Source: Candidatus Latescibacterota bacterium
GTDB taxonomy: Bacteria; Latescibacterota; UBA2968; UBA8231
Assembly: GCA_965242865.1 (NCBI GenBank)
Contig: CBDETK010000013.1
Coordinates: 1,952,001-2,016,000, forward strand
Direction of reading: 5' to 3'
Length of the DNA stretch: 64,000 nt
Made by a program: the position numbers and the translations under genes. The notes under the pieces were generated by a model, which ran no database searches, was not told the origin of the DNA, and worked only from the letters and a program-made list of their open reading frames with translations. Position 1 is the stretch's first letter, and each line of letters opens with the position of its first letter. Positions 2,814 to 63,973 of this stretch are shown piece after piece.

Positions 2814-2965
2814 TGTTTTCTCCTTGATATTGTTAGGAGGTAGTAGAAGGGAATGGCGCGACACTCGCTTTGAGTACGCCTTGCCATGGATATTCACGCG
2901 GGCCGCTCTTGTCAAGGATGAGTGAGCATTCAGAGTATTGTGTAAAAAAAGAGCAGAGCAACAAA

Positions 2966-3358: not shown

Positions 3359-3378
3359 CGTCGTCTCCTTTGAAGCCA

Positions 3379-10925: not shown

Positions 10926-11021
10926 GGAGTTTTAGTGGAGACGAAAGGAGAGGGCTATGCAGCTTTGCTCGGATGCCGCATCTGCACGGTCCAGACCCCA
11001 GAAAGCTGAAAATCCCAAGAT

Positions 11022-36000: not shown

Positions 36001-36014
36001 GATCTACTCCTTTT

Positions 36015-37964: not shown

Positions 37965-38000
37965 TTTGTGGCGAAATATAGCCCGTTCTCACCCACCCCT

Positions 38001-39941: not shown

Positions 39942-39944
39942 GGA

Positions 39945-42584
39945 CTACACCCCGCCGGTCGCGGCGAAGATGCGGACGAAGACGATCGATTGCTTCTGGG
40001 TCTGCTCGGCGAAAAACTGGCGTTCTAGGAGGAAGCCAGCGTTCATGGTCAGCTCGTACCCTTGATAGGACGACACATTCGTCAGCAGGGCCGAAAAGAC
40101 GAGGCTGCGGAAGTCATCGACGTAGCTCGGCGACGCCTCGGCTGGACGCTCGATTAGGTTCTCAAAGAGGCTGAATTCAACGCCAAAGTCCAATTGCGTC
40201 CTCGGCAGGAGCAAGTACTGGCCGATAAAGAAGAAGCTCTCGGTCAGCTCGTTGGCGGCCAAATCGGCCAACGCGGTGGGCGTTTCTCGCAGGTACATGC
40301 TCTTCCACTTGGGGTGGAGCGCGAGTTGGTCGCTGGGGCGAATGGTGTAATCGGCCTTGTTGATCAGGCCCAAGAACGAGCGGTCGCGCTTTAGGCGGGC
40401 CTGCGCGCCGAGTTGGTTGAAGCGCTCGTACTTGAGCTTGCCCTCGACGTTCAGGTTGGGAATGCGAAAGTAGCGGGCCTGCGCGTACAGCGCGTTGACA
40501 AAGGTGTCTTGGTTGTCGAGCGGATCGTCAAAATCCGTCAGGCCGATGGGGTCGCGCCAGACGATGCGGTCTTCGGGTAGGGTGTCGGCCACGAGCTTGG
40601 CGTGTTCAAAAAGGGCTAGGTCCAGCCCGGGATACGATTTTTCCACGGTCAGCAGCCCGTAGAACGAGCGGCTCGCGCGGTCGCTACTCAGCTGGTGCTC
40701 GGCGAGCCGGCCGACGGTCAGCCGGGTGCTCTCGGTGATTTTTAAGCCGCCGTACGCGTTGTAGCCGCGGTGGTCGCGCTCGTAGGGGTAGTCGGGCAGG
40801 CGGTCGTCCTCAAAGCGGTCGATGATCGTGTTGTTGTTCATGTCCATGCCAAAGAGGAACTCCGGCGGATCGACCTGATAGCGGAGGAACGGCTCGACGT
40901 AATCCGGGCGGCTGTTCTGGTTTTGGTTGAAGTCGGAGATAAAATCGTTGTTCTCGTCCAGCCCGGGAAAAATCTCCGTGTCGCGGCCCAGCGAGCCGCC
41001 CTGCCCGCCAAACCCTTGGCTCTGGCGATAGCGTTGCCAGTCGGTGAAGCGGTCTTGGTCGTCGTTGTCATCGACAAACTCAAAGAGGTTTTGGGTCTCG
41101 CTGGCGTAGTCGATGACCCCGCCTGGGTCCGCGATAAAGGCCGTGGTGCTGTAATCGGGATCGATGGAGAACACCTCGCCGTAGGCAAAGAAGGGGTAGC
41201 GCTGGTACGAGGCCGTGACGTACCCGGCTTCGGCCGTTTCCTTGTACGCCGGCAGCTTGCGAAAGTTTTGGTTGGGGAAGCGGCGGAAGCGGCGATTGAC
41301 GGCCCATTCGGCCCGCAGGTCAAAGTGGGCGAGGTTGATCAGCTCCAGATCCATGCCCACCACCTCGTGCCCGGTCGGCAGGCCGTAGGCAAAGCGCACA
41401 AAGGTCTGATTGGAGCCGTCGGTGATCTCGTCGCGGGCTTGGGCCACCGGCAGGAAAACCTGCTCGCCCCGAGCATTGGTCTGGAGGTTAGAGGCGATCT
41501 CTATGCGGTAGTCGTTGGACACCACCAGCTCGAATTCGAGCTTCTTGGCCTCGCGGAAGGTGCCCACTTTTTCGGTCGGGCTAAAATCGTTGCGAATGTC
41601 GTAGATGAGCTCAATGGCGTCCGAGCCGCGCACCTCCAAAATGCCCTCGCGCCGCACGCCGCCGCGCACCAAGGGCACGATTTCCGGGTGCAGCTCGCCG
41701 TCGATGATCACCTGATCGACGAAAAACGAGGCCCCGGTTTGCTCGGATTCGGGCGAATCGTCCGCGATGCGGATGATGACCCGCTCGACATTGCCCGTGT
41801 TTTGCGGGCCGGTCAGCAGGCCCTTGAGCGAGTTGTCGCCGAGGCTCAGCTCGCTGCTGGTGTTGGACACATTGACCCACGTCAGGCCTAGCTTGGCAAA
41901 GTCGCCCACTTGGGCCACGCCCCGCGCCCCGAGGAGCCGGGTCGTGTTTTCGAGCGTCGAAGAGCCGCCCGCCTCGTTGAGCGCGGTAAATCCCGGCGCG
42001 TTGAGCCGCGAGCCGAGGAGGGTCAGGGCGTACTTGTCGGCGAGAAAATCCCACTGCAACCCGTTGAACGTGGGCTTGGAAAAGGTCAGGGGGGTGAGCG
42101 TCGTGCGGATGGCGTCGCCCACGGTCAGGGAGGTGTGGAACTGGCCGTGGCTGGCCGACGAGATGACGAGGCTGTCGAACCACCGCCCAAAGCGGGTTCC
42201 CTTGAGGAGGGCACTGCCTTGGCGCAGGGGGCTGGTTTCGGTCCAGTCGTAGATGACCCAGCCGCGGTTGATGTACTGGCCGAACAGGTTGTAGTTGCGG
42301 GTGCCTTCGAGCAGGATGTTGACGTAGCGCTCGTAGTTGTCGCGCGCGTAGTTGCTGTATTCCCAGCCGCGCCACTGGTATTCGTAGTACAGGTTCTGCG
42401 GCAAGTACCACTTGCGCCGGTTGGGGGCCAAGGCCCCGGGATGGATGCGCACCCCGCGAATCCCCGGTTGCTCAACCGGGCGAAAGCCGGTTGATAGCTG
42501 AGCAAAAGCCGTGGATTCTGAGAGTACAAACGCGCACCACAACAGCGCGATCGGCCCTCGGCGGTAAAGGGTTGTAAGCCTCAT
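39945..42584 (-). CDS. Large exported protein, probable outer-membrane beta-barrel with DxNxN Ca-binding loops
   Basis: AGGAG RBS; signal peptide; DDNDDQD, DENNDFISDFNQN, DMNNN; alternating beta-strand C-terminus. Confidence 0.55.
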   Translation of the reverse strand: MRLTTLYRRGPIALLWCAFVLSESTAFAQLSTGFRPVEQPGIRGVRIHPGALAPNRRKWYLPQNLYYEYQWRGWEYSNYARDNYERYVNILLEGTRNYNLFGQYINRGWVIYDWTETSPLRQGSALLKGTRFGRWFDSLVISSASHGQFHTSLTVGDAIRTTLTPLTFSKPTFNGLQWDFLADKYALTLLGSRLNAPGFTALNEAGGSSTLENTTRLLGARGVAQVGDFAKLGLTWVNVSNTSSELSLGDNSLKGLLTGPQNTGNVERVIIRIADDSPESEQTGASFFVDQVIIDGELHPEIVPLVRGGVRREGILEVRGSDAIELIYDIRNDFSPTEKVGTFREAKKLEFELVVSNDYRIEIASNLQTNARGEQVFLPVAQARDEITDGSNQTFVRFAYGLPTGHEVVGMDLELINLAHFDLRAEWAVNRRFRRFPNQNFRKLPAYKETAEAGYVTASYQRYPFFAYGEVFSIDPDYSTTAFIADPGGVIDYASETQNLFEFVDDNDDQDRFTDWQRYRQSQGFGGQGGSLGRDTEIFPGLDENNDFISDFNQNQNSRPDYVEPFLRYQVDPPEFLFGMDMNNNTIIDRFEDDRLPDYPYERDHRGYNAYGGLKITESTRLTVGRLAEHQLSSDRASRSFYGLLTVEKSYPGLDLALFEHAKLVADTLPEDRIVWRDPIGLTDFDDPLDNQDTFVNALYAQARYFRIPNLNVEGKLKYERFNQLGAQARLKRDRSFLGLINKADYTIRPSDQLALHPKWKSMYLRETPTALADLAANELTESFFFIGQYLLLPRTQLDFGVEFSLFENLIERPAEASPSYVDDFRSLVFSALLTNVSSYQGYELTMNAGFLLERQFFAEQTQKQSIVFVRIFAATGGV

Positions 42585-42832
42585 GATCCATCTCCTAACG
42601 AGGGAAAGCCCGCCTAGACCAGCGAGCGCAGACAATATACGCCCCGTTCCCACTGCCTACCAAGTCCGCACTTTCTGGCCGCAAACTTGTTTCGCCTATG
42701 TGGACTTTTTTATTATACTGTAAAATCACTTTAGCCGTATCCCCTATCCGAAAGGAGGTTGTGCAGCGTGCTGAACGACCATTCCCACATCCCTTTTTTT
42801 CTTCATCTCTTCCAATCAAGGAGCGTAGCACC

Positions 42833-43744
42833 ATGAGAAAGTTCGGCTTTTTCGCCTTGTCTTGCGGGCTGGCGTACCTGCTGAGCACGGCCGCTTTTGC
42901 CCACGTGGGCGTGACCGTGTTCTATCCCCAAGTGCCCGACCCGGCAGCCATCACCATCGACGGCAATGACGACGACTGGGGTTGGTACGACCCGGCCCTC
43001 GCCCTCAATCAGCCCGATTTCTTCGACCGGGCCAGCGATTTCGTCGAGTTGTCGGACTACGATTTCACCATCCTCAACGGCTGGTCTGCGCCGCCGGACA
43101 ACAAGTGGTACGGCTTTGCGCGCTTCGTCGATGACACCCTCAAGTACGATTCGCCCGTCAAGGAGTGGTGGAAAGACGATTGCTTGCAGATAACCGTGGA
43201 CGCCGATCACCTCGGCGGCAACATCCTCGGTTCCGACCTAGAGCAGATCGCCAATGGCCAGCGCTGGCACGTGCGCATTTTCCCGCCCGCCGGCGAGTCC
43301 CTGCTGCCCAATCAAACCCCCTTCTTCTACAGCCAGCTAGAGTTCATCGACTCCGAAGAGCTGCTCTGGGGAGTCCAGCCGGAGTTTTTTGAGGCAGCGT
43401 GGACCGTCCTGCCAGCCGGCGCCGAAAACCTGACGGTTGGCCCGGTCACGTACACCTACGAGTGGCGGGGTGCTTTGTGGGATATCTGGGGCCTGAGCGA
43501 GAGCGAGAGCGTGCGGCACGTGTTCGCCGAGGACGACGTGATCCACCTCGGCTATCGCCCGCTCGACGCCGACCGCCCCGGCGGTGGGCGCAAGCATTCC
43601 ATGTACATCAACGACGGCAGCCAGTCGCAGGACGTCGACGCTTCGCAGATGCCCGACTTCTGGGCGCTGGCGGCCCCGGAGACCAACGTGGAAAACGAGA
43701 CTTGGGGCCACATCAAAAACAGCATGTCCCAACGCCTCAAGTAG
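42833..43744 (+). CDS. Secreted CBM9/DOMON-like putative sugar-binding protein
   Basis: AAGGAG RBS; signal ending AFA; ITIDGNDDDW, DDCLQITVDAD, YTYEW; C-terminal TWGHIK. Confidence 0.6.
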   Translation: MRKFGFFALSCGLAYLLSTAAFAHVGVTVFYPQVPDPAAITIDGNDDDWGWYDPALALNQPDFFDRASDFVELSDYDFTILNGWSAPPDNKWYGFARFVDDTLKYDSPVKEWWKDDCLQITVDADHLGGNILGSDLEQIANGQRWHVRIFPPAGESLLPNQTPFFYSQLEFIDSEELLWGVQPEFFEAAWTVLPAGAENLTVGPVTYTYEWRGALWDIWGLSESESVRHVFAEDDVIHLGYRPLDADRPGGGRKHSMYINDGSQSQDVDASQMPDFWALAAPETNVENETWGHIKNSMSQRLK

Positions 43745-43761
43745 GAGTTCGCAGCGCAATC

Positions 43762-43795
43762 ACGAGGGAGGGGGGCCGCGGCCCTTCTCCCTCGT
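43762..43795 (+). terminator. GC-rich hairpin, probable terminator
   Basis: ACGAGGGAGGGGGGCC-GC-GGCCCTTCTCCCTCGT followed by a T-rich tract. Confidence 0.6.
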
Positions 43796-43805
43796 TTCAT
43801 TTTCT

Positions 43806-45893
43806 ATGAAAAAACGCGATAAAACCCTAGCTGGCGCAGAAAGGGAGAACCGCTTCTACCCACTTTTTTCGCCTCCCCGGCGGTGGATGCGGTGGGCGAT
43901 GTTGGCTTATGTCGCGCTGATGTGCAGCCCTGGGGCGGCGCAAGAGTGGTGGCAGCTCGGTGGGCAGGGCGGCGTCTCGCCGCTGGACGTGGCGGATTTC
44001 AGCCTGATGATAGACGATGCAGCTGCTTCCCAAGCACTCCAGCCCTTTGAGCTCGACCCGCACGAAAACATCTTGCCGCAACTCGGCCCTTGGCAGCGCT
44101 GGCGCTTTCCCACGGACCCGCAATTCCGCCCCGGCCATCCGCGCTTCTGGACGGACATCAACCACAACACCCTATACAAGGCCACGGAAATTTTTCTCTT
44201 CGTCGATGGAGACTCGACCACGTACGTGGAGCGGCGAGATGGGGAGCAGATTTTCTATACCATAGACTTGGGCATCCCAGTGCCGGTAGAGCGCTTTGTC
44301 TTTTTCCCGCCCGAAGGCGTCAGCCCCGAAAGCGACGAGCCTTTCAGGCCCAATTACATCCTCAAGTCCTATAGTCTGACGGCCGACAAAGCCGAGACCG
44401 GCATTCTGCAAGAGGAGATAGAGCGCGGGTTCGTCTGGCGGGGCGACGGGCCGTGCTGTCCGCTGGCCATCCCCCTCGCCTACGAGGAGCGCAACACCGA
44501 CGCGGTGACCGAAATCGCGTTTTCCACCCAATACCTCCGCTTCTTCCGCCTCATCGCCATCCCCGACGGCTTTACCCTGTACGGCGACCCCATCGTCACG
44601 CGCTCGGCCTTTGCCGAGATGGAAATCTACGGCCGGGGTTTTGCTCCGCAGGCCATCTACGAGTCGCAGATCATAGATTTGGGGCGAGAGGTCAATTTTG
44701 GGCAGGTGCGCTTGGGAGTGAGCCAATGGCGCAAGGACGGAGAGCACCTGCTGCCATCCGACGGTCCAACCCGCGCCCAAGTGGAAATCCGCACCGGGCG
44801 CGACGACACCCCAACGGCTTATTTCGGCTTTGACGATCTGGGCGCCCATGTAGAGGTGACCAAGAAGCAGTGGGATCGGCTGATCCCCCTAGAGACGCGC
44901 GGCGCGACCGTAGCGGTCGGCTATCGCGGGCCGGTGGCCGAAGACCTGCAAAACTGGAGCTTCTGGTCCCTGCCGTTGGAGGGCTCGGGCCAGCACCCGC
45001 GCCTGCCGTGGGGTCGGTATTTCCAATTGCGCGTCCAGCTAGCAACGGACGCCCTGTGGGAATTTGCCCGCCTCGATTCCCTGCAAATCGAGATCGCACC
45101 CCTGCTGGCCGACCGGGTCGTCGGCGAGATCGTCCGCGCGGACCAACCCCATCCCCAAGGCGGGCAAGTGCGCGTCCCAGCGGGCGAGAAAACCCCGTTC
45201 ACGTACGACCTAGGCGTGGAATTTGCCCGTGCGGACCGCGTCGGCTGCGACGCCGTGCGCGTCTCGGCACCGGCGGAAGCCACGTTTCGCTATTTGGCGA
45301 TGGGCGACCCGCTCAGCGCGGTAGAGCCAGACAGCCTGCTGCGCGAAGCAAGCGGCTTTGTCGTATTCTTGCCCCGCCCCTTGCACCCAAGCGGCGATCA
45401 GCGGCTGCGCCTCGGCCTCGAAGCCGTGCTGTACGGCGAGGCCGGCGAATTTGGCGGCGAAGTCTTTAACCGCCGCGAGCCGAGCTTGTTGCAGCGCGTC
45501 GAGGGGGGCGACGTCAGCGCGGAGCTAGGCTCCAACCAGTTGCTCGTCGTGGCGTCTGCCGCTTCCAAGAGCGGGGTACTGGGCGATGTCGAGGCGGGTA
45601 GCGGCGCGTTTACCCCCCAAGGCGACGGCGTAAACGACCTGTTACCCATACGATACACCCTCTTCCGGGTGAGGCAGTCGTCCCAAGTGCAAGTCCGAGT
45701 GTACGCCCTCGACGGTCGGCCGGTGTGGCAGACGCAACCGAGTGTGCAGGGCGCGGGACGCCATGCGGTCTATTGGGATGGGCGCGATAGCACCGGCCAA
45801 AGAGTCCCTCCCGGCACCTATTTGGCGCGGGTGGAGGTGGAAACGGATAAGGGACGAGAGGTGCGGATGCGGCCGGTGGCCGTGGCGTACTAA
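43806..45893 (+). CDS. Secreted protein with C-terminal FlgD Ig-like domain (paralogue of 36015-37964)
   Basis: RTGRDDTP, NWSFWS, TPQGDGVND..WDGRDSTG..PPGTY; ends AVAY; alternative start at 43887. Confidence 0.75.
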   Translation: MKKRDKTLAGAERENRFYPLFSPPRRWMRWAMLAYVALMCSPGAAQEWWQLGGQGGVSPLDVADFSLMIDDAAASQALQPFELDPHENILPQLGPWQRWRFPTDPQFRPGHPRFWTDINHNTLYKATEIFLFVDGDSTTYVERRDGEQIFYTIDLGIPVPVERFVFFPPEGVSPESDEPFRPNYILKSYSLTADKAETGILQEEIERGFVWRGDGPCCPLAIPLAYEERNTDAVTEIAFSTQYLRFFRLIAIPDGFTLYGDPIVTRSAFAEMEIYGRGFAPQAIYESQIIDLGREVNFGQVRLGVSQWRKDGEHLLPSDGPTRAQVEIRTGRDDTPTAYFGFDDLGAHVEVTKKQWDRLIPLETRGATVAVGYRGPVAEDLQNWSFWSLPLEGSGQHPRLPWGRYFQLRVQLATDALWEFARLDSLQIEIAPLLADRVVGEIVRADQPHPQGGQVRVPAGEKTPFTYDLGVEFARADRVGCDAVRVSAPAEATFRYLAMGDPLSAVEPDSLLREASGFVVFLPRPLHPSGDQRLRLGLEAVLYGEAGEFGGEVFNRREPSLLQRVEGGDVSAELGSNQLLVVASAASKSGVLGDVEAGSGAFTPQGDGVNDLLPIRYTLFRVRQSSQVQVRVYALDGRPVWQTQPSVQGAGRHAVYWDGRDSTGQRVPPGTYLARVEVETDKGREVRMRPVAVAY

Positions 45894-45945: not shown

Positions 45946-46290
45946 ATGAATGCCATTGAAGCCCATATCGACAACGCGACCATTGAGGCCATAGCCCAAC
46001 TGATCGTCGAACGCTTTGAGCCGGAACGAGTCATTCTCTTCGGCAGTCATGCCCGCGGAGAGGGGGGATCGCATAGCGATGTGGACCTGCTAGTCGTGCT
46101 CCGCACCGGCACAGAAAAGCTACCGCCCGGCAATCCAATCCGTCGAGCGATTGCCGAGTGTTTCGTCCTGCCCGTTGATGTACTGATCCGCTCGCCGGAA
46201 GTTCTCGCCGAACAGCGCAATGACCCATATTCCTTGATGCACCAAGTCTTGGAAGAAGGGAAGGTATTGTATGAGCGGCACGTTGCCTGA
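45946..46290 (+). CDS. Minimal nucleotidyltransferase (MNT) antitoxin
   Basis: ILFGSHARGE...SDVDLLVV...PVDVL...EGKVLYE. Confidence 0.9.
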   Translation: MNAIEAHIDNATIEAIAQLIVERFEPERVILFGSHARGEGGSHSDVDLLVVLRTGTEKLPPGNPIRRAIAECFVLPVDVLIRSPEVLAEQRNDPYSLMHQVLEEGKVLYERHVA

Positions 46291-46372
46291 ACGGGACTGG
46301 TTCGATAAGGCAAATCAAGATTTGGAGATGGCGCGTCGGGCGTTGGGTCCGAAAACACCTTCTCATTTATGA
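46271..46372 (+). pseudogene. Truncated HEPN toxin
   Basis: Overlaps the MNT end; MSGTLPERDWFDKANQDLEMARRAL stops after 33 aa. Confidence 0.75.
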
Positions 46373-46398
46373 CCTAATGAAAATGAAGAGAGGCTGTT

Positions 46399-47319
46399 TT
46401 GCGTAGAATCATACAGATCATCTCGGCAGGCGTCCACAAGGTGGGCGTCTTCCTTGTAGAAGAAGTCCGTACGATCTGGTATATTTTGTTTTTCGCCGCA
46501 GTAATCATAGTTTTCGGGTTTCTTTATACCTATCTGACTCCAATAGGGCACGGTATCGGGCAAAATCTCAAGCCGCTTTCTGACATTACACTTTGCACAG
46601 GCATATACTTCAGTATTGTCACGATCTCCTCGTTAGGGTACGGGGATATGCACCCGATGGGGTTCTCAAAAGCTCTCGCCTGTATAGAAGTCCTCTTAGG
46701 ACTCGTAGTCATAGGTATTATGATAGCTAAAGTTACTTCGCGACGTCCGTCATACCACGTTGAGCGTCTTTTCAGTTCTAATGCTCAAAAGCGACTTGAA
46801 AATTTTGCGACAGAATTTGCGGTATTTCACGGCGATTTTGAAACAATTATTCCGGATCTTCGGGACGCCTATCAGAGAATTCCTGGCCAAAGACCCTCCG
46901 AGGACAAGAGCGAATTGGTCGAACGTTTCCAAGAAATTATCACTGCATTCCAATCACAATGTACTGCGTTGCATACCTACTTTTCGGATGAGACTAGTCG
47001 GGGAAATTACTTCGAGATCGTCCCAGCTACTGCAACGGTGCAGGTAGGTAATGCCGTTTGCAACGCCTTCTTTATCCTTAGTCAACTTCTTGTAATCCTG
47101 CCGCCTCAAGCGGAAACTGAAGCTGAAGTTCTTGATAGACGCAGCAGACAGGGTATTTCAAGGGCAATTAACGCCCAGATAAAGGCATGTGATTTAGTTG
47201 ATCAATATGCGACTGATCAGGGTACACTTGATGTATTCCAGCGCATTCAAGATACTTGTAGGCAGTTGCCAGAAAGTTATTTCGCAGAAGTATCGCAACC
47301 CGACCAACTCCTACAATGA
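46399..47319 (+). CDS. Potassium-channel (Ion_trans_2) domain protein with helical C-terminal domain
   Basis: IYFSIVTISSLGYGDMHP filter motif between two TM helices; start uncertain (TTG). Confidence 0.8.
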   Translation: MRRIIQIISAGVHKVGVFLVEEVRTIWYILFFAAVIIVFGFLYTYLTPIGHGIGQNLKPLSDITLCTGIYFSIVTISSLGYGDMHPMGFSKALACIEVLLGLVVIGIMIAKVTSRRPSYHVERLFSSNAQKRLENFATEFAVFHGDFETIIPDLRDAYQRIPGQRPSEDKSELVERFQEIITAFQSQCTALHTYFSDETSRGNYFEIVPATATVQVGNAVCNAFFILSQLLVILPPQAETEAEVLDRRSRQGISRAINAQIKACDLVDQYATDQGTLDVFQRIQDTCRQLPESYFAEVSQPDQLLQ

Positions 47320-47355
47320 TCCTGACGAGGCACAATAACTTTAAGGGGGTGTAAG

Positions 47356-47745
47356 ATGAGCGAACAGCTTCTTCACGGGCACGAATTATCGCTAGAGCTG
47401 GAATGGATGAGGTGCTGGGGCGATGTCTGGTGCAAGCTCAACCTTGTAAACCTAAACCACGAGTATTTCGACAAGGATGTCTCTGGCGTCTATATAATTT
47501 GGCACGGAGGGCCAACCCCCAAGGTGGTGTACGTCGGTCAGGGAAATATCAAGGATCGCATAGCCAAACACCGGGAAGATCCAGAGATACAGCGGTATGA
47601 ACATCTGGAGCTTTATGTCACCTGGGCACCAGTACCTGAGGAATCCCAAGACGGTGCAGAAGCGTATTTGGCTGAGCAATGGTCCCCAAAAGTCGGCGAA
47701 CGCAATCCAGACGCCCTGCCCATAAAGGTAAACTCTCCGTGGTAG
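47356..47745 (+). CDS. Small GIY-YIG nuclease-like protein
   Basis: SGVYIIW...VVYVGQGNIKDRIAKH...AEAYL. Confidence 0.65.
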   Translation: MSEQLLHGHELSLELEWMRCWGDVWCKLNLVNLNHEYFDKDVSGVYIIWHGGPTPKVVYVGQGNIKDRIAKHREDPEIQRYEHLELYVTWAPVPEESQDGAEAYLAEQWSPKVGERNPDALPIKVNSPW

Positions 47746-47795
47746 CCATTGCGACCCATCCCCCCAGAACAGCACCTCCTAACGAAAGCCTAGCT

Positions 47796-48569
47796 ATGCC
47801 TGCATCGTCTCATCGCCTATTCGCCTTACTATGCGCCGCGCTGCTCGCCGGAGGCTGCGGCCACAAGTTAGGCTATCGCCACTTTGCCGGTCCCATCTTG
47901 CCGGCCGCGAATTTGGCGGCCACGGATTTCGTCGTCCGCGACGACCACAGCATCACCTTCGTCAAAAACCGCTTGGAGGTGAGCTTGTTGCCGCTGACTG
48001 TGGCCATGCTCAATCGGCAGCTCAGCAGCCACTCGCAGCGGCCCGAGGGCTTTCACGACCCCAACCCCTATCTCGCGCCGGTCAATCCCTACACGTACGG
48101 CGACTGGAAACCGGGCTGGGAAGAAGAGCAGCCCACCCGCTTTACGGTCTTTCTGCTCAAGGTCAAAAACTACGCGTACCCCAAGGTGTGGCTCAATCCC
48201 TACGCCATAGAGATCGCCAGCACCAATGGCCGGCGCTACCAAGCCTTCACCCGGCTGGCGTTAGACGAGTACTTCGCCCCGTATGCCATCGGCTATGCCG
48301 GCAACACCTTTCTCCCGTTCCGCGAGCGGCGCGACCTATTGCTCCGCACCTTGTACCCCGAAGACGAAATGATCTTCAGCGGCCAAGAGCGCGAAGGCTT
48401 TGTTGCCTTTGCCCCGCTGGCGCACGATGTCGAATCGTTTGAGGTGCGGGTCGCGGAGCTGGTGCTGCGCTTTGACTACCGAGATCAGCCGATGGAGACC
48501 ATAGACATCGCCTACCCTTTTACGCGCGAAGTGTACTTGGCCAAGCACCGCCGCGCCGAGGAACTCTAA
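47796..48569 (+). CDS. Hypothetical lipoprotein
   Basis: Lipobox AGGC; NPYTYGDW..RFTVFLLKVKNYAYPKV. Confidence 0.65.
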   Translation: MPASSHRLFALLCAALLAGGCGHKLGYRHFAGPILPAANLAATDFVVRDDHSITFVKNRLEVSLLPLTVAMLNRQLSSHSQRPEGFHDPNPYLAPVNPYTYGDWKPGWEEEQPTRFTVFLLKVKNYAYPKVWLNPYAIEIASTNGRRYQAFTRLALDEYFAPYAIGYAGNTFLPFRERRDLLLRTLYPEDEMIFSGQEREGFVAFAPLAHDVESFEVRVAELVLRFDYRDQPMETIDIAYPFTREVYLAKHRRAEEL

Positions 48570-56338: not shown

Positions 56339-57040
56339 CTAGCTGATACTGCTCAGGGCGGCGGCGAAGGAAAGCCAAATAATCATTATGAGACCAATCC
56401 CAACGTAGGCTTTGCTGCGATCAAACTGCCCCACAATAGACAGACCGAGACCAGTGACCACAATGCTCCAAACGACAAAGGGATCAATGAGGGACAATAA
56501 GTGCCCACTGAAGCTTCGGAGAGCCTCTTCGGAGAGGAACACCCCCAAGCCTATTTGCACTAGCGGTGTCTCTGTGGCCAATATTAGCAATGTCTTGATA
56601 ATCTGTTGGGGAATAGCGATCAACCCCGCATAGACTACTATGGTTAGGACTTGGCCGTAGGAGAGCAGGCCGCCTAGTAATTTGCCCACCAGTAGGCAAA
56701 GCGCAGAAAAAATAAAAACAAAAGTGAAAAGCACGATAGGTGTAACGATCAGAGTACTAACCCGCATGATGCCTTGGGTTTGGTATTGCTCCACGATCTT
56801 GCGCTCTTCGGCGGACATACCCTGCATCCGTTGCTGCATCCGTTCTTGGTTGAATTCAGTCGTAAAGGGCAGGATAAGTACCGCGGCAATCGTGGCAACT
56901 GCGACGTTCAGAATGGCAGGTACAAGCCAGTCGGCAGCACTGCGCTCGCGGGCGAGATCTTCAAAGGTCTCTCTCGGCGCGTAGAAGAGGCGAATCATGC
57001 GGTTGATAAGGCCGATTTCAGCCTGAGATGTGGGTTCCAT
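56339..57040 (-). CDS. Yip1 domain membrane protein
   Basis: LFYAPRETFE.L; five TM helices; LIDPFVVWS; GGAGG RBS. Confidence 0.75.
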   Translation of the reverse strand: MEPTSQAEIGLINRMIRLFYAPRETFEDLARERSAADWLVPAILNVAVATIAAVLILPFTTEFNQERMQQRMQGMSAEERKIVEQYQTQGIMRVSTLIVTPIVLFTFVFIFSALCLLVGKLLGGLLSYGQVLTIVVYAGLIAIPQQIIKTLLILATETPLVQIGLGVFLSEEALRSFSGHLLSLIDPFVVWSIVVTGLGLSIVGQFDRSKAYVGIGLIMIIWLSFAAALSSIS

Positions 57041-57132: not shown

Positions 57133-57933
57133 TTAGAGCGGCGTTGGAATAAAGGCCGATAGTTCCAGAGCCAAAACCGACATATTGCGTAGAGCATGAT
57201 ACATAATAGAAGGGTAAAGAGAGCGCGTTCCCTGATACAAAAAAAACGAAAGACTCTGTGACATAAACGTAATGATAAATTCCCTTAGATGTTCTCCTGA
57301 AAACGGAGAGTAATGGTGATAGCTGAAGATAAAAGCGGTAATAGTGAAGCCGAGAACGAATCCCAATCGATTCCTTAAAGCAGGGAAAATCAGACCGGTA
57401 AAATATGCCTCCTCTATAATAGGGGCAATCAGTAAAGCACGAACTGAATGTGGAATGATAAGGAGAAATATAGTACGAAATTCGTCCCAGCCGGCTTCCT
57501 CAACCCAAGGTATTAGAATAGGGTTGGGGCTTATTAAGTGGATATCAATTCCCCGGAGCTTCATGTAAAGGAAAAAGACCAATATACTTACTCCGGATAT
57601 TAACAATAAAAAAATAAACGTTAAAACTAATTTTTTTGATTCCCTGGGAATTTGGAGGGACAATCCCAATGTTTGGGTGTTTAGAGCCTGTTTTTCTATC
57701 TTGGAAAATGCCACGACAATTAAAATAAGTAAGGCATAAGGAATAGTACATAATGATATGAAAAGGTAGTCGCTCAAAGCGAATAGATTAAGTATAGTAT
57801 CGACAGTATAGCGAAAGAAAAAGAACATAAAAATGGCGAGTAGAAAGGTAGAAAATATTCTACATCGTATATTTTCAAACTTTCTGGTAAATACGGGATG
57901 AATGTATTGGTCCATTGTGTGGATCTTTTTCAC
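57133..57933 (-). CDS. CPBP-family (Abi/CAAX) intramembrane metalloprotease
   Basis: APIIEEAYF, FSYHH, SLYPSIMYHALRN motifs; multiple TM helices. Confidence 0.85.
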   Translation of the reverse strand: MKKIHTMDQYIHPVFTRKFENIRCRIFSTFLLAIFMFFFFRYTVDTILNLFALSDYLFISLCTIPYALLILIVVAFSKIEKQALNTQTLGLSLQIPRESKKLVLTFIFLLLISGVSILVFFLYMKLRGIDIHLISPNPILIPWVEEAGWDEFRTIFLLIIPHSVRALLIAPIIEEAYFTGLIFPALRNRLGFVLGFTITAFIFSYHHYSPFSGEHLREFIITFMSQSLSFFLYQGTRSLYPSIMYHALRNMSVLALELSAFIPTPL

Positions 57934-57961: not shown

Positions 57962-58020
57962 TGGTGAATCTTTTGAGCTACCAGCCTCGACAAGACGACT
58001 GGTAGCTCATCAATTCACCA
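57962..58020 (-). terminator. Long stem-loop downstream of the precursor gene (attenuator or mRNA stabiliser)
   Basis: TGGTGAAT..TGAGCTACCAG pairs with CTGGTAGCTCA..ATTCACCA; no clear U-tract. Confidence 0.6.
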
Positions 58021-58086: not shown

Positions 58087-58359
58087 TTACGGATTGCGAG
58101 CGTACGATGCTTCTCGGTTTTGTCTTGAGGATTCTAGGTTCCCGTAAAGGGCCATCGCAGCAGCAGTGATGGCGGCGTCAGCCGCTAACGCAATGCCTAT
58201 CAGTGCCCAAGGAAGTGCTCCGCCCTTGATATCCTGAGCCTCAGAAGGCGTAATAGGCTTTGAAACGATCTCACTGTTGCTGGGTGCGATACTATAGGCG
58301 CACAAGCCCAAGGCTGTCGCCAGAGCTGTTACACCTTTAGTTTTGATAAGTTTAGTCAT
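58087..58359 (-). CDS. Putative bacteriocin/RiPP precursor with double-glycine leader
   Basis: AAAGGAG RBS; ITPSEAQDIKGG matches the LSxxELxxIxGG consensus; 43-aa core ALPWALIGIALAADAAITAAAMALYGNLESSRQNREASYARNP; adjacent to a C39 peptidase. Confidence 0.75.
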   Translation of the reverse strand: MTKLIKTKGVTALATALGLCAYSIAPSNSEIVSKPITPSEAQDIKGGALPWALIGIALAADAAITAAAMALYGNLESSRQNREASYARNP

Positions 58360-58417: not shown

Positions 58418-58963
58418 TTATTTTTTTGTCAATATCAAAGTCTCTCCTTTCCATATACGATTGAATGCCCCTTTTCCAATTCTGAGCCTGCCGATGGCTG
58501 GATCCCGCAAGATGACCTCACCGTGTTCGTTGATCTGGTCTAATACCGCAAAGTGGCCATCCTCAACAAAGACTACCGCAGGAAGCGGTTTGCTCTGTAG
58601 GTCATCTATATTTAGCCTCCAAGTTTCAGCATGTACTCCTTGACTTTCAGCGTATTCCATCAACTCGAATAGGGAAGAACCTGTCTCGTCTAATTTAATC
58701 ATGTCTTCAATATCTGTAAGCTCGCGGTTTATACCTAGGCTATCCAAGACCATTTTAAGAGCTACAGGACCACAATTCATCTTACGTGTTTGTAGAATGA
58801 CTCCTTCTGTTCCCTTGTATTCTGCACCTTTCAACCATGCCGCCAAGTTACGGTATATGATTTCACTCGTAATGGATCCGGCGACTAATTGCAAGGTAGC
58901 AGCAAAAAAAATGACTAATACTATTGCTGCTCCAATCGTTAATTTACTTTTCCAAGATGTCAT
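58418..58963 (-). CDS. Stand-alone C39 cysteine peptidase with N-terminal signal/anchor
   Basis: QTRKMNCGPVALKMV (Q, C), GHFAVL (H), RDPAIG (D); hydrophobic N-terminus; no ABC domains. Confidence 0.9.
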   Translation of the reverse strand: MTSWKSKLTIGAAIVLVIFFAATLQLVAGSITSEIIYRNLAAWLKGAEYKGTEGVILQTRKMNCGPVALKMVLDSLGINRELTDIEDMIKLDETGSSLFELMEYAESQGVHAETWRLNIDDLQSKPLPAVVFVEDGHFAVLDQINEHGEVILRDPAIGRLRIGKGAFNRIWKGETLILTKK

Positions 58964-58991: not shown

Positions 58992-61505
58992 CTATAGGGC
59001 TGGTTCTTGAACAGCCTTTATTTTTTTTTCGACTCGGTCAGCGTAGCTATACATATCTATTTCGACGAAAATTTTTGCCGCCATCGTCCACAAGGCGACA
59101 GCTTTTGCTTTTGACTCTTTTTCGGCAGCCACATCTCCCATACCTGTATAGGCAAGTCCCCGTCCCAGTTCGTCTCCGATCCTTTTGCATATAGACAAGG
59201 CTCTACTGTAACAAGATTCGGCTTCACTCCACTGTCCTCTAAGCTGATGTATCTCGCCCAGACTGGAAAGCCCGTAGGCGGTGCCCTTTTCGTCATTCTC
59301 GGCTTCGTATATCCCCAGTGCAGTCTTCTGCTCTTGGTGCGCGTCTTCATATTGTCCGCATTGGATATATACGAGACTTAAAGTAGTTCGGGCTGCTGCA
59401 ATAGTTTGCTGATTAGGCGAGTCTTGAGTGAGACGTAGGTAATTGCATAAGAATTCCTTGGCTTTATCAAATTTTTTACTATGAGCGTACAATTTTCCAA
59501 GCGATAAATAGCACTCAGTCACATCGGACGACATACCTATACGTTCAAATAGACTTATAGAGTGATGCAGGTAGGATTCTGCCAGAGGAAAATCTCCACG
59601 ATAGAAATGTACATTCGCCAGTACCTTATATGAGTACGCTTTTCCCTTTTCATCCGCCAAATTTTGATTAGCCTCTAAGGCAGCTTTGCCGTATTCTAGT
59701 GCTTTTTCCATATTTCCCATTAGAAGGTGTATAGAAGAAGACAATCCATAATGCAATGCCAATCCCCCTTTTCTATCCATCTTTTTATCTATGTCAATAG
59801 CCTGTTCCAGTAAAGTATGTGCTTCGTGGATACGGCCTTGAATTTTTCTTAAATTTGCAAGTGAATTGTACTGGTTAGCAATTCCCTCGGAGTCTCCGAT
59901 TTCTTTGTAAATAGCTAAAGATTCCTCGTAAAGTTTCTCTGCTGAATCCAAGTCGTCTTTTAGAAGATGCACAGTACCCAAGTTGCTGGTAACCAAGGCA
60001 TAATCTTCTCGACAATTTACTTTTTTGTGAAGACTCTGTCCTTTAATATAAAAATCCGCAGCTTCGGCGAGATTTCCTTGTAGCTGCGCGATAAATCCTT
60101 TGCAGGTATATCCTACGGCTAGCTTCCTTGTACTTTCATCATCCTCAGCTTGTGAAAAAATTGATATGGCCTCATCATAACATTGATCTGCCCTGTCTAA
60201 TTCGCCTTTCAGCTCATAAACTTTGCCTTCGGAGATCAGTATGTTAGCCAATCCTGTAGCTGTACTACCCCGAAGACGATTCGCTTCTTTTGCCAATTCG
60301 ATTTGAGATAAGGCGGATTCTAGACGACCGTTCTGCCAGTGCTCGTCAGCAGAGGCTAAAATGATTTCCCATTCTTCGGGATCACCTTGCTGGTCAACTC
60401 GTTCAAATACCTCGCTTTCAGCAGGGCTAAATTTGCAATGAGTAGGAAGCTCGGTATCTAGGTTGAGCTGTGGGAGCACATCCAAGATCTCTTGATACTC
60501 TTTTCTGTCTGCTGCAGAGATGGTTCGGTAGATATGGTCAAATTCAATCAGACTGTCTATAACTGACTCCTCTGGAAGAAAAGGATTAGGCCACAGATGC
60601 GCCCACCAGAAGTGGATCAGACGCACCAAGGGATCGCTATGTTTGCGGGCTATGTACTCAACCGCGGCGTACCGCTTTGTGCTCTCGGCTTTTGCCTTCT
60701 CAGGATCGGAGAAATTATGATGATGGTACAGGTGATAAGAAGAGGCCTGGACACTGATAAATTGTCCACCCGCCGCCCCTAGGCGGTAGCCAAGTTCCCA
60801 CCCTTCACAGAAAGGTATGGCATCATCGAATCCCCCTACTTTTTCTAGCAGCTTTAACGGTATGGCCATATTGTGAGGGTATAATCCAATCCAGCCTAGG
60901 GCCGGTTCTGCGATGGTTTCGTAAAGATCGTGAAATTCCCTCTGCATAGTACGGACTTCTTCAAACGGATAGCCTCCTTCCACTGCTTTTTCGGTAATAC
61001 TCTCGAACTCATTGCACACCATACTCTCTGTGACAATCATCTTATCTCGGTGTAGCTCTAAGCACCGACGCAGTGAATAAGGCAGTGAGGTATCGGCGAG
61101 TGAACCTGTCTGAGGATTTTGGAAATACTCTAGGTCGGGAAGGACATATTGATAGCCACATAATACTGACTTCTGACCATTCTCTTTATAGGCTTCTAAG
61201 TAGCACTGGAGTAGTTCCGGGGCTGGTAATGCATCTCCATCCAAGAAAACGACCAACGAGCCTAGTGCCCGTTCAACCCCTCTATTCCGTGCTCGGCATC
61301 GGCCCTGATTCACTGCAAAACACTCAACTTTGAGGTTATGCATCCTTCGCGATTCGAGCATTGCTCCGGTCCCGTCTGTAGAACCGTCATCAACTACTAC
61401 TATTTCAAAACGATCGCTTGGAATATTCTGATTTTCTAAGCCACTTAACACGAGACGGAGACGGTCTTTCTGGTTATACGTGGCTATGATTACACTTATA
61501 TCCAT
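58992..61505 (-). CDS. Family 2 glycosyltransferase with long C-terminal TPR array
   Basis: MDISVIIATYNQ, VVDDGSTDGT, ARNRG, FLDGD; about ten TPR-like units; ATG at 61505 overlaps the upstream TAA (TAATG). Confidence 0.9.
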   Translation of the reverse strand: MDISVIIATYNQKDRLRLVLSGLENQNIPSDRFEIVVVDDGSTDGTGAMLESRRMHNLKVECFAVNQGRCRARNRGVERALGSLVVFLDGDALPAPELLQCYLEAYKENGQKSVLCGYQYVLPDLEYFQNPQTGSLADTSLPYSLRRCLELHRDKMIVTESMVCNEFESITEKAVEGGYPFEEVRTMQREFHDLYETIAEPALGWIGLYPHNMAIPLKLLEKVGGFDDAIPFCEGWELGYRLGAAGGQFISVQASSYHLYHHHNFSDPEKAKAESTKRYAAVEYIARKHSDPLVRLIHFWWAHLWPNPFLPEESVIDSLIEFDHIYRTISAADRKEYQEILDVLPQLNLDTELPTHCKFSPAESEVFERVDQQGDPEEWEIILASADEHWQNGRLESALSQIELAKEANRLRGSTATGLANILISEGKVYELKGELDRADQCYDEAISIFSQAEDDESTRKLAVGYTCKGFIAQLQGNLAEAADFYIKGQSLHKKVNCREDYALVTSNLGTVHLLKDDLDSAEKLYEESLAIYKEIGDSEGIANQYNSLANLRKIQGRIHEAHTLLEQAIDIDKKMDRKGGLALHYGLSSSIHLLMGNMEKALEYGKAALEANQNLADEKGKAYSYKVLANVHFYRGDFPLAESYLHHSISLFERIGMSSDVTECYLSLGKLYAHSKKFDKAKEFLCNYLRLTQDSPNQQTIAAARTTLSLVYIQCGQYEDAHQEQKTALGIYEAENDEKGTAYGLSSLGEIHQLRGQWSEAESCYSRALSICKRIGDELGRGLAYTGMGDVAAEKESKAKAVALWTMAAKIFVEIDMYSYADRVEKKIKAVQEPAL

Positions 61506-63973
61506 TATAGAAACTCCACTCTCAGGTGATATTGGCACTTCAAATTTGAGATATGCTCCCATCCATCCTTACCTTCTATTAGGAAATAAGGTAGCGTCTT
61601 AGCAGAGTTGGAAAACATGAGTCGTTGGTTATCTAAGTGGCCAAAATAGTAGGAATCAAAAGATCGAGTATTTCGCTTTATGTATGTTTTTAGCTTAGGA
61701 TCTTCGACATTGTATTCGGTTATAGAAACTTCGCCGATAGCCATACTGAGGAATTCGACGGGTATCCAGCCCGCTTCTTCTAGATAAATTTCGGCCCACG
61801 TGTGGCCTACTATAGGCTCGTCTATACTTCTGTATTCGTACACCTGTTCAGAAATTGGGAATCCCAACAAGGTTCCACATCTCTCGCGAGCAGGAATACC
61901 GACCATTCTACATAGAGCTATAAAGGTTCTGGCAAAGTGAATACAATTGCCACCGATGTTATTCAGCAAAACAGCCGAACTATCAGCTAGACCCATCGCA
62001 GGTATCTTAGTCTTTCTGAATTTTTTAGTTCTGATTAACTTGCTGTAGAAGGCCCAGGCCAGTTCTTTTTTGTCGCAGGGCGCGGATGCTTCGAGTATCT
62101 CGGAAAGCACTTGCTCCAGTTCTGGCAGTTTGCCTAAAATTTCGTCGGTATATAAATATTTCGATCTCTCCCAGTCCGAAAGGATGTACTCGCCTCTACC
62201 TTTAGCATTATACTCACTGACCTCAAGTTCACAAGTATATGAAAAATTTGCCGAATTTGAGTTTACAGTGAAAGGATATGCATAGAAGAAGCCAAACTTG
62301 CTGCGTAAACAGTGTCTCATATTCTCTGGAAAACAGTCGATTAGACTAACTGCCTTTTGTTCTTTTGTCTCCAAAGGGTATGGCATAAAAACCCTTAACT
62401 GTTGATCTGGTTTTTCAGTAAAATCTATGTCGTAAGAGTAGGTTATTCTGTAACGTTGGGTATGATATTTTGAACGTACGTTGCCTATTTCGTCTATATC
62501 GAAAAAGACACGTCGTCTTTGATCACAGGCCTTGTACTCAGCCTCAAAAAATCGAGCTTCTCTTTCGTAGAGCCAATTCCAAGAGTCTATTTTGTCGAAG
62601 AAGTACTGATTGCCCTGTCGCCAGTGAGGTATCCCTTTTTTAATACCTTGCCGTAGCATTTTATGTAGTGATTCCATTGATAGAGTGGAAGGAGTAGTGC
62701 CATCGAGTTGCTGTAAGAATTCGTTTTCACTTACTAGAAATTTAGGATCGAAACTGAGTGCCGTGTACCGGTTCGTAAAATAATCATCTACCCAGTCTGC
62801 AACGACATCTCTTGCACACCATCGATTCAATAAATTGGCAAGAGCTTCCAATTGAATCTCCATCTTATCCCAGACACCGAGAGTTTTCCTTAGTATTTGT
62901 GTAATATTGTGATAACTAAATCTATCTGGATCTATTTTTAGGCCCAAATTAACCTCTTCGAGTCTATCGAGATGAAGCTCCTGATCTAAAGTGGTTGCTA
63001 TACCGATAGGCAAAACTCCATGAAGCAAAGCACTATATAGGGTCTCTATATCTAAATCTCCAACTATTACATGTATCCTTTCCCATGGCGGCTCTCTATA
63101 GATTCCATTCTCTACATGGCTGTCAGGCCGCTTTACTCCTCTGGTAGATTCTACTAGTAAACGATAAGGGAGTTCCACTCCAGATGCATCCTGTCTCAGT
63201 ATATCTTCTTTTAGGAGATTTTGGGGATCTTTTATATAGATGACAGGGAATGATCCATCCCGTTTGCGAAGCACCTTTCGTTTGCCTCTCTTTTTATCGG
63301 TAGTCGGCAAGAGGGGCCCTATGTAGTGGAACCCGTCAGCACCGAAATCTAGCGTGGGATATAGTTCGGGTATATCGGCGATTAGATAGTACTTATTCTT
63401 CTTCTTGATTTCGCCAGCTTTGTTTTTTAAGTACTCTGCAAACGTGTCTCTTGATGATAGAACAGATAGAGTCTGAAGAGGGATACGATAGCCTAGGCGA
63501 TCGTATCCTTGAATTACTTCAGCTTCGTCAATACCTTCCAAGTGTGCTGCAATTGAAGCAGTTGGTTTCAAGGAATGTATAATTAGATCAGGCTTATACT
63601 CCTCAATCAAAGACCGTTCGGATTCTACGCAAGAGTCGATCCATTCCGTATCACATGCTCTATAGTCCAATAGCTCAATCTGGTCTCTGTGAATCTCTAG
63701 CGGCAGCGTTTTAACACTGCATATTTCTTCTCCTTTTTGGAAACATTGCTCCGCCCAAGGTCCATCTCCTGCCAGCCGAACCTCATAGCCTCGGCGACGT
63801 AATTGTCGGGCAATCTCACAAGCTCGCCTAGTATGAACAGCACTACAACCATGGAACAGGACCATAATAGACAATGCGCTACGGTCTAATATACTGGTTT
63901 CCGATGCTCTTCTGAGGCTACTGCTCCACCACAATAACCTTGACACTAATTTTTCTCTGATAGATGTACGCAA
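61505..63973 (-). CDS. Fusion of a GT-B (GT1/GT28-like) glycosyltransferase domain and a transglutaminase-like domain
   Basis: HTRRACEIARQLRRRGYEVRLAG, HYIGPL, HGVLPIGI...DQ; GNCIHFARTFIALCRMVGIPAR, HTWAEIY...GWIPVE. The frame is open to the window edge, so the start (TTG with GAGG upstream) is uncertain. Confidence 0.8.
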   Translation of the reverse strand: MRTSIREKLVSRLLWWSSSLRRASETSILDRSALSIMVLFHGCSAVHTRRACEIARQLRRRGYEVRLAGDGPWAEQCFQKGEEICSVKTLPLEIHRDQIELLDYRACDTEWIDSCVESERSLIEEYKPDLIIHSLKPTASIAAHLEGIDEAEVIQGYDRLGYRIPLQTLSVLSSRDTFAEYLKNKAGEIKKKNKYYLIADIPELYPTLDFGADGFHYIGPLLPTTDKKRGKRKVLRKRDGSFPVIYIKDPQNLLKEDILRQDASGVELPYRLLVESTRGVKRPDSHVENGIYREPPWERIHVIVGDLDIETLYSALLHGVLPIGIATTLDQELHLDRLEEVNLGLKIDPDRFSYHNITQILRKTLGVWDKMEIQLEALANLLNRWCARDVVADWVDDYFTNRYTALSFDPKFLVSENEFLQQLDGTTPSTLSMESLHKMLRQGIKKGIPHWRQGNQYFFDKIDSWNWLYEREARFFEAEYKACDQRRRVFFDIDEIGNVRSKYHTQRYRITYSYDIDFTEKPDQQLRVFMPYPLETKEQKAVSLIDCFPENMRHCLRSKFGFFYAYPFTVNSNSANFSYTCELEVSEYNAKGRGEYILSDWERSKYLYTDEILGKLPELEQVLSEILEASAPCDKKELAWAFYSKLIRTKKFRKTKIPAMGLADSSAVLLNNIGGNCIHFARTFIALCRMVGIPARERCGTLLGFPISEQVYEYRSIDEPIVGHTWAEIYLEEAGWIPVEFLSMAIGEVSITEYNVEDPKLKTYIKRNTRSFDSYYFGHLDNQRLMFSNSAKTLPYFLIEGKDGWEHISNLKCQYHLRVEFL

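Follow-up and report, generated by a model that had tools for sequence, protein, structure and literature searches.

A glycosyltransferase-like/transglutaminase-fold fusion protein and its GT2 partner in a peptide island of the Latescibacterota

What does a protein do that joins a glycosyltransferase-like half to a transglutaminase-fold (TG) half, and is a small peptide encoded a few genes away its substrate? This question is raised by a gene at positions 61505..63973, on the minus strand, of a 64,000-nucleotide stretch of DNA from a Candidatus Latescibacterota bacterium (GenBank assembly GCA_965242865.1, contig CBDETK010000013.1, positions 1,952,001 to 2,016,000), which we refer to as the window. 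Our comparative analysis allowed us to assign both halves of the fusion protein to known folds, to follow their catalytic residues through the family and to identify a partner gene that accompanies the fusion almost everywhere. The answer for the protein itself is firmer than the answer for its substrate: the fusion belongs to a conserved cassette with a glycosyltransferase of family 2 (GT2), and for the proposal that this cassette modifies the neighbouring peptide we see the chances as evenly divided.

Two halves of one soluble protein

The gene is an uninterrupted reading frame of 822 codons that begins with a TTG, ends with the stop codon at 61505-61507 and lies in a frame that stays open up to the window end. 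The original prediction had placed it correctly at 61505-63973: a database protein of 822 aa (P0003) is 100% identical to its product, and the 36 aa upstream of the first ATG are kept in homologs of the fusion, which rules out the ATG at 63865 as the start. All residue numbers are therefore counted from the TTG, and all features of the gene are given on the minus strand. Residues 1-36 (63866..63973) form a conserved N-terminal helix of low model confidence, predicted by AlphaFold2 (AF2) for residues 2-26 with a pLDDT of 44-56. Residues 37-405 (62759..63865) have a GT-B fold of the YjiC-like type of glycosyltransferase family 1 (GT1), with degenerate catalytic and donor motifs, as seen from profile comparison, AF2, Foldseek and dN/dS. 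A helical/hairpin linker domain (residues 406-490, 62504..62758), delimited by identity within the subclade, dN/dS and AF2 secondary structure, connects this part to a beta-sandwich ahead of the TG core (residues 491-590, 62204..62503), which is evident from the AF2 strands and is spanned by the Foldseek matches to the structures 3isr and TgpA. The transglutaminase-fold, papain-like core itself occupies residues 591-822 (61508..62203) and is defined by Pfam family PF01841, its catalytic triad and the AF2 model. Hydropathy analysis detected no transmembrane (TM) segment in the fusion protein or in the product of its GT2 partner gene, and the fusion is a soluble, TM-free protein of 822 aa. NCBIfam gave no match above cut-off for it, and a search for longer homologs of 1440-4110 aa found none, which is weak evidence.

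The C-terminal half is a member of the transglutaminase-like superfamily by profile, fold and triad alike. It matches Transglut_core (PF01841) with 49.9 bits against a cut-off of 23 (E=4.5e-13), and an AF2 model of residues 405-822, built from a 71-sequence alignment, reached a pLDDT of 95.2 and a pTM of 0.94 and shows the beta-sandwich and alpha/beta core of the fold. The best Foldseek match of this model is a ‘putative cysteine protease’ of Cytophaga hutchinsonii (3isr, E=1.2e-11), followed by the periplasmic domain of Pseudomonas aeruginosa TgpA (6g49, E=1.6e-6). Further matches are mammalian TG2, TG3 and factor XIII (E 1e-4 to 1e-2) and Streptococcus pyogenes TglA, and PeiP and arylamine N-acetyltransferase are more distant ones. 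The Cys-His-Glu triad and the fusion architecture are as they had been described before: checked codon by codon, the triad is made up of Cys677 in a GGNC motif (61943-61945), His724 in a GHTWAE motif (61802-61804) and Glu740 in a GWIPVE motif (61754-61756). Among the 71 aligned relatives the Cys is kept in 70, the His in all and an acidic residue in all (Glu in 55, Asp in 16), and the complete triad is present in 70 of the 71. The Glu is thus a conservative, family-wide variant of the Asp; as the family norm, interchangeable with Asp, it argues for a working triad. Like 3isr and TgpA, which represent the COG1305 type, the window protein combines a beta-sandwich with a papain-like PF01841 core and has its Cys and His in the same motifs. 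It differs from them in that Glu is the prevailing acid of its family, in the extra conserved linker, in its cytoplasmic location and in its fusion to, or adjacency with, glycosyltransferases. We know of no defined substrate for either 3isr or TgpA.

The N-terminal half has a GT-B fold of the GT1 type, more precisely of the YjiC-MGT type. As a single sequence it stays below the curated thresholds: the best Pfam glycosyltransferase model, Glyco_trans_4_4, scores 17.6 bits with a cut-off of 29.7, and the best NCBIfam model 18.3 with a cut-off of 440. A profile of 30 full-length homologs, by comparison, matches Bacillus subtilis YjiC (Bs-YjiC, 6kqx) with E=2.2e-24 over profile positions 47-407. 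The full-length AF2 model (pLDDT 82.2, pTM 0.57) has the two Rossmann-like domains of the fold, and its top Foldseek matches in the PDB are all GT1 enzymes (SpnP, EspG2, OleD, CalG1-4 and YjiC; E 1e-14 to 1e-11, target TM-score 0.55-0.71), the best being SpnP (4ldp, E=1.4e-14). Profile and structure searches thus bear out the GT-B identity that had been proposed from sequence patterns.

At the level of individual motifs, the agreement with YjiC, OleD and MGT enzymes (6kqx, 2iya, 4ldp) is confined to a few positions. His47 is kept and aligns with YjiC His16, and the D-Q of the C-terminal donor motif is kept as well. In contrast to these enzymes, Ser134 of the window protein stands at the position of the Asp in the YjiC IIYD strand, which we take to be the partner of the catalytic His; KDPQN replaces the G-S loop; and GDLDIET (residues 305-311) sits at the h-g-G-m-n-S stretch of YjiC, where the solo GT1 protein of a more distant cassette (L037, see below) has HHGGAGT. 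The absence of an HGG donor loop noted in the original prediction is therefore real, with GDLDIET in place of the Gly-rich loop. These changes are characteristic of the subclade to which the window protein belongs (P0003-P0014). In its 12 members the IIYD-Asp position is taken by Ser (10), Thr (1) or Cys (1), compared with Asp (16), Glu (1) or Ser (1) in 18 other family members. The Gly-rich loop and the G-S loop are each missing in 12/12 of the subclade and kept in 15/18 of the others, and these 18 have V, I, T or G instead of the canonical HGG His. The window protein has no pairwise similarity to canonical GT1 (BLASTP E=0.5), whereas the loop-retaining P0016 matches the same sequence with E=7e-9. 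Because the curated thresholds are not reached and the acidic dyad position and both donor loops are lost, the window protein is a structural, not a catalytic, member of GT1.

Two further observations indicate how this half came about and how it is kept. For the TG half, 71 rows were placed in a maximum-likelihood tree by a quick search, with a midpoint root that serves for drawing only. There, the window subclade forms one group of 10 rows with a support of 100 and a stem of 0.75, nested among other GT1-TG proteins, the enclosing fork having 83% support. Since the subclade is nested in this way under midpoint rooting, the losses of the glycosyltransferase motifs are derived. Moreover, comparison of the window gene with the two related loci L001 and L002 revealed purifying selection on every domain of the fusion, with dN/dS of 0.19-0.27 in the two subdomains of the GT-B half and of 0.10-0.19 in the linker, the sandwich and the TG core. 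The linker alone has values of 0.10-0.14 and is also the most conserved part within the subclade (identity 0.64). The GT half is thus maintained and not decaying. A half that has lost its motifs in 12/12 members and is still under purifying selection is probably an apparently inactive module for binding or scaffolding, as judged from these sequence comparisons, and the earlier suggestion that it serves for binding only fits the data.

The fusion is not a peculiarity of one genome. A word-indexed search returned 22 clusters, all with PF01841 and the more distant ones also with UDPGT and EryCIII-like_C, and an exhaustive protein search found 1034 proteins at E<=0.001, 28 of them at E<=1e-30. A genome scan confirmed 375 relatives, of which 80 were listed; the locus counts in this study rest on these 80. 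Both halves are covered in 33 loci (L001-L033) among the 80 matches listed. These loci come mostly from metagenome-assembled genomes of Latescibacterota, a few bear the label Poribacteria, Planctomycetota or Gemmatimonadota, and several genomes carry two or three fusion paralogs. An assembly artefact, one of the outcomes that the original prediction had named as speaking against it, is ruled out by this recurrence, which includes records titled whole chromosomes. In one locus (L022, 9914-12399) the fusion is split in two frames, with tblastn pieces for residues 8-366 and 385-822 and open reading frames at 10025-11092 and 11032-12411, representing either a frameshifted copy or a sequencing error. 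The automatic JGI name of relatives already joins ‘YjiC family glycosyltransferase’ with ‘transglutaminase-like putative cysteine protease’. Full-text literature searches for the architecture found no description of such a fusion; in PMC8195603 both domains are mentioned, within unrelated conflict systems. The fusion is a conserved two-part bacterial enzyme that is so far unstudied.

A constant GT2 partner and permuted fusions

The constant partner of the fusion is a GT2 gene, usually with tetratricopeptide repeats (TPR), and not a peptide. In the window, this partner gene (58992..61562, minus strand) overlaps the fusion gene by 58 nt and encodes an 856-aa protein in which a GT2 domain with intact DDGSTD and DGD (DxD) motifs is fused to TPR repeats. 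The GT2 gene adjoins the fusion in 30 of the 33 loci and lies 4-5 kb away in two others (L009, L010), while in the last one (L023) the contig ends. A stricter panel search found a GT2 homolog in 32/33 loci and TPR in 25/33. This partner had been overlooked in the original prediction. The fusion is therefore one half of a conserved cassette, and the other half is the next gene, the GT2.

Beyond the Latescibacterota, the TG unit occurs in other arrangements, together with the linker from about residue 380 onwards. The linker is common to GT2-TG fusions, and phmmer matches to these proteins begin at query residues ~380-400. Among 20 sampled relatives, five are GT2-TG fusions (P0048, P0051, P0055, P0063 and P0080), P0054 carries GT2, TG and GT1 in this order in a single chain of 1204 aa, and P0058 has GT4-type domains. 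In an Angelobacter locus (L034) and a Blastocatellia locus (L037), a solo GT1 gene comes after the GT2-TG gene. The recurrence of GT2, TG and GT1 in permuted fusions and in strict adjacency identifies them, by Rosetta-stone logic, as parts of one machine.

The cassettes found outside the Latescibacterota, consisting of GT2-TG plus a solo GT1 (L037 64-8454, L034 1363-6877, L035 3634-9907), lie beside natural-product genes. The cassette of L037 is preceded by a nonribosomal peptide synthetase (NRPS) with the order fatty acyl-AMP ligase (FAAL), acyl carrier protein, condensation domain, adenylation domain and peptidyl carrier protein (FAAL-ACP-C-A-PCP), which ends in the carrier domain and in which no release domain was detected. 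The cassette adjoins an AMP-binding/FAAL gene in both L034 and L035. The NRPS/FAAL link comes from these three loci only; it gives a hint that the off-loading of acyl chains may be a task of the TG unit.

The peptide island

In the window, the cassette opens a six-gene operon on the minus strand, in which fusion and GT2-TPR are followed by a C39 peptidase, a small peptide, an RNA hairpin, a CPBP family protein and a Yip1/YknW-like protein. The genes are densely packed: the overlap between fusion and GT2-TPR is followed by gaps of 28 and 58 nt. The C39 cysteine peptidase (58418..58963; Pfam Peptidase_C39, 1.8e-27, and NCBIfam) is a stand-alone enzyme with its Cys and His motifs present and, by hydropathy, a single N-terminal TM segment (residues 10-28). 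The CPBP/Rce1-like intramembrane protease family protein (57133..57933; Pfam 6.2e-13, TM segments) is bacteriocin-immunity-like and has MrtS/MrtJ-type NCBIfam matches below cut-off. The last gene of the operon (56339..57040) encodes a Yip1/YknW-like membrane protein (Pfam Yip1, 1.4e-17; NCBIfam YknW_fam, 5.6e-20, below cut-off).

The peptide gene (58087..58359, minus strand) is preceded by a Shine-Dalgarno-like site and encodes 90 aa, with a conserved N-terminal part of 47 aa ending in IKGG, a hydrophobic stretch and a polar, Gln-containing tail. Its family comprises 23 clusters of 84-99 aa. All 23 have the same IKGG motif, with an E at position -8 and an I at -4, and it resembles a double-glycine leader motif. 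All invariant residues (S33, P35, T37, E40, A41, I44, G46 and G47) precede the end of this motif, and the GG is followed by a hydrophobic stretch of ~26 residues with a conserved Asp and by a short polar tail. Among the residues after the GG, Gln occurs in 22 of the 23 peptides, Lys in 10 and Cys in none. The earlier observation that the core has one Gln and no Lys thus holds for the window peptide and not as a rule of the family. Furthermore, the stretch after the GG looks like a TM helix whose tail is basic or polar. As an alternative to a leader-core layout, this post-GG segment may serve as a membrane anchor, and the product may be the segment before the GG, which is conserved and rich in Ser, Thr and Pro.

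The C39 peptidase, peptide and CPBP genes were found in three of the 33 fusion loci, L001-L003, which are exactly the loci of the window subclade (3/3 there). In a further genome of the subclade, the peptide P0182 and the fusion P0009 lie three genes apart, judging by their locus tags. When 103 neighbouring open reading frames from 11 loci were scanned with Pfam, no Peptidase_C39 was detected in the nine loci outside the subclade.

The gap of 153 nt 3′ of the peptide gene contains a conserved RNA hairpin (57962..58020, minus strand). A folded segment of 151 nt has a minimum free energy of -41.8 kcal/mol (z=-3.88), and both sequence and stem are conserved in L001-L003, with two pairs changed on both sides. 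The hairpin may act as an attenuator or stabiliser that sets the ratio of peptide to enzyme.

The operon lies in a region of distinct base composition, with a GC content of 0.39-0.46 at 57-64 kb compared with 0.60-0.65 in the flanking housekeeping genes, and the same GC step occurs at 10000-17000 of L001, an 88%-identical locus. This low-GC compositional island was probably acquired horizontally; its upstream border lies beyond the window end. PADLOC yielded no defence-system match except for generic TPR models.

Several features in the wider surroundings deserve mention in their own right. About 4 kb upstream of the island in L001, a low-GC patch (0.39) at 2835-5625 encodes a DNA methylase alongside a restriction enzyme of the BanI type. 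The window itself has a second stretch of lower GC content (0.49-0.52), at 46000-48000, which contains a nucleotidyltransferase (NTP_transf_2/Polbeta), an ion-channel gene and two open reading frames without a family. In the region from 33628 to 45893, a run of large secreted-type proteins have FlgD_ig domains or CHU_C domains, the latter being type IX secretion signals; the same region also contains genes for a DUF6785/DUF6784 membrane protein and an open reading frame of 902 aa that has no family.

Among the neighbours of other fusion loci, a secreted family of ~310 aa without a Pfam match (e.g. L020 4524-5456, L018 13578-14558 and 17 other loci) is the most frequent after GT2 and TPR. It is often multicopy and is found alongside ABC-2 permeases with DUF3526 and alongside DUF1573 and NPCBM_assoc proteins. 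A paralogous cassette in L026 (13836-19452) is accompanied by three small secreted proteins that are nearly identical and have about nine Cys in their last ~48 residues. Two of the three are each preceded by an FG-GAP/FlgD_ig protein of ~694 aa, and upstream there is a prepilin-peptidase-like gene. In L026, small exported peptides thus occur next to the cassette for a second time, in a case unrelated to the first.

What the cassette may do

Our candidate explanation for the island, to which we give an even chance on the basis of gene content and sequence motifs, is that a putative cytoplasmic, GT2-partnered cassette tailors the GG-motif peptide. The fusion and the GT2-TPR protein would form a cytoplasmic tailoring complex for this peptide, which would resemble a bacteriocin. 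The substrate would be held by the TPR repeats together with the dead GT-B shell, the GT2 domain would transfer the sugar, and the Cys677 domain would react with an amide of this substrate to give a thioester acyl-enzyme. Resolution of this acyl-enzyme by water or an amine would result in trimming, deamidation or transamidation. Precedents for this scheme are the formation of amide bonds by the transglutaminase homologs CtaJ and AdmF and the activation of the GT2 Chs2 by the TG-like domain of Cyk3, both taken up below. The C39 peptidase would then cut after IKGG, and the CPBP and Yip1 proteins would protect the producer.

Such an arrangement resembles the clusters of glycocins (SunS/ThuS/GccA), a group of peptides that are made by ribosomes and modified after translation (RiPPs), in which a GG-leader-like peptide, a C39 peptidase, a GT2 and membrane immunity-like proteins likewise share one operon; the double-glycine motif and the C39 domain of these clusters are both found here. 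However, glycocins are defined by a Cys-containing core with disulfides or S-glycosylation, and none of the 23 peptides has a Cys after the GG. Pfam detected no thiol-disulfide oxidoreductase in the island. Moreover, unlike in glycocin clusters, the island C39 enzyme is stand-alone and TM-anchored instead of being part of an ABC exporter, and there is an additional GT1-TG protein. As for a SunS-type enzyme, the partner GT2 has TPR and the DxD motif and matched only generic GT2 structures.

A number of findings weigh against peptide tailoring. The GT2 domain has only generic GT2 similarity (to chondroitin synthase and others), and none that is specific to known peptide glycosyltransferases. Both enzymes of the cassette are cytoplasmic, whereas the first ~23 residues of the peptide resemble a Sec signal and the predicted position of the C39 domain is outside the membrane. 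A Pfam scan of the island revealed no sugar-nucleotide genes and no exporter. In addition, 30 of the 33 fusion loci lack C39, peptide and CPBP, so that the general substrate of the family is not this peptide. Another outcome that the original prediction had named as speaking against it, that the fusion is widespread without peptides, is thereby partly realized. The commonest neighbours other than GT2 and TPR are instead the ~310-aa secreted protein (19 of 33 loci), ABC-2 permeases (18) and histidine kinases (16), followed by DUF1573 proteins (15) and sigma-54 activators (13).

The peptide-free majority speaks for an explanation without any peptide. The cassette might make or regulate a non-peptide glycoconjugate, such as an envelope glycan, a glycolipid or glycosylated secreted proteins, and the peptide, C39 and immunity genes would merely share its island; we consider this rather improbable. 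Most loci have ABC-2 transporters, OEP and secreted proteins where the peptide genes are missing, the NRPS without a release domain precedes GT2-TG and GT1 in L037, and AMP-binding/FAAL genes occur in L034 and L035; against the latter link, the FAAL protein of the panel had no tblastn match in any of the 33 loci. The TG unit would in this case act as a GT2 regulator or an acyl-transferase. A precedent for regulation is the TG-like domain of yeast Cyk3, which, according to PMC4758748, binds and activates the GT2 chitin synthase Chs2 and lacks the catalytic Cys. Cyk3 thus likewise couples a TG-fold domain to a GT2, but it is evolutionarily remote and, as described there, differs from the family studied here, in which the Cys is kept in 70/71. 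HvyA, described as a TG homolog that prevents capsulation, is another possible model. Precedents for transfer are AdmF (andrimid) and CtaJ (closthioamide), transglutaminase homologs that make amide bonds via a Cys triad, and the papain-like BtrH (butirosin), which acts on an aminoglycoside, as described in PMC7898593 and PMC7183216. By description, they share with the window protein a Cys-His-Asp-type triad, used for acyl transfer to an amine and not for hydrolysis, and TG relatives of the window protein adjoin NRPS/FAAL genes in the three loci outside the Latescibacterota. These enzymes, however, are described as taking carrier-protein thioesters, whereas the window island contains no carrier protein, FAAL or NRPS. 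A glycoconjugate would also leave aside that in 3/3 subclade loci a single compact operon contains both the cassette and the peptide genes, and that TPR is fused to the GT2 only in the setting of the window subclade.

Two other explanations keep the TG domain at work on a peptide or protein and differ in what resolves the acyl-enzyme. It could simply act as a cysteine protease or amidase and trim the peptide, or a different protein, in the manner of lasso-peptide B proteins or COG1305, which we rate as somewhat less probable still than a glycoconjugate. A Cys acyl-enzyme is hydrolysed by default, the triad is conserved, and the closest structures are 3isr, which is annotated as a putative protease, and TgpA. 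On the other hand, the operon already has a dedicated peptidase in C39, and a protease would leave the constant fusion or adjacency to two glycosyltransferases unexplained. The lasso-peptide B protease is a papain/TG-fold Cys enzyme that acts on a ribosomal precursor; the window protein differs in belonging to PF01841 and not to Transglut_core3, and in the presence of a separate C39 peptidase. Neither an Asn-synthetase-like cyclase nor a RiPP recognition element was found among the six operon proteins by Pfam and NCBIfam, and the lack of a cyclase rules out a lasso-type system. Alternatively, the TG domain might use the Gln of the polar peptide tail as acyl donor and attach to it an external amine, such as an amino sugar or polyamine, or the peptide N-terminus, so that the product would contain an isopeptide or amide linkage. 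The triad for this is intact, a Gln follows the GG in nearly all peptides, TG homologs are proven catalysts of amide formation, and the TG unit is always tied to glycosyltransferases as possible suppliers of a sugar-borne amine. Yet there is no invariant Gln column in the peptide family, in which all invariant residues come before the GG; the lysines in the tails of 10/23 peptides show that their absence is not a design feature; the peptide would gain a free N-terminus only once C39 has cleaved it, which probably happens outside the cytoplasm; the island contains no amino-sugar genes; and the peptide-free loci count here as well. We rate the Gln-amine reaction as unlikely and as the least probable of these explanations.

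Overall, both domains of the fusion are textbook folds, and it is their obligatory pairing, as GT1-TG with GT2, as GT2-TG with GT1 or in one chain, that is new to the literature searched. The N-terminal half would represent a clean natural example of a glycosyltransferase that has become a maintained pseudo-enzyme module. The TG-fold enzyme, conserved and by prediction catalytically intact, likely has a glycosylated peptide or an acyl chain as its substrate and may carry out a new tailoring reaction of RiPPs or NRPS lipopeptides, and the locus adds a small, probably horizontally acquired peptide island to what is known of the little-known phylum Latescibacterota. A more far-reaching and quite unlikely possibility is that GT2, TG-fold and GT1 units together constitute an undescribed glyco-conjugation machine that crosses phyla and transfers an acyl group from a peptide amide or a carrier-protein thioester to a sugar-borne amine. 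The peptide-amide donor would then be the Gln-bearing tail in the window, and the thioester donor would belong to the NRPS/FAAL-linked versions in Acidobacteriota and Myxococcota. If such a machine exists, the island would encode a new class of amide-linked glycopeptide bacteriocin.

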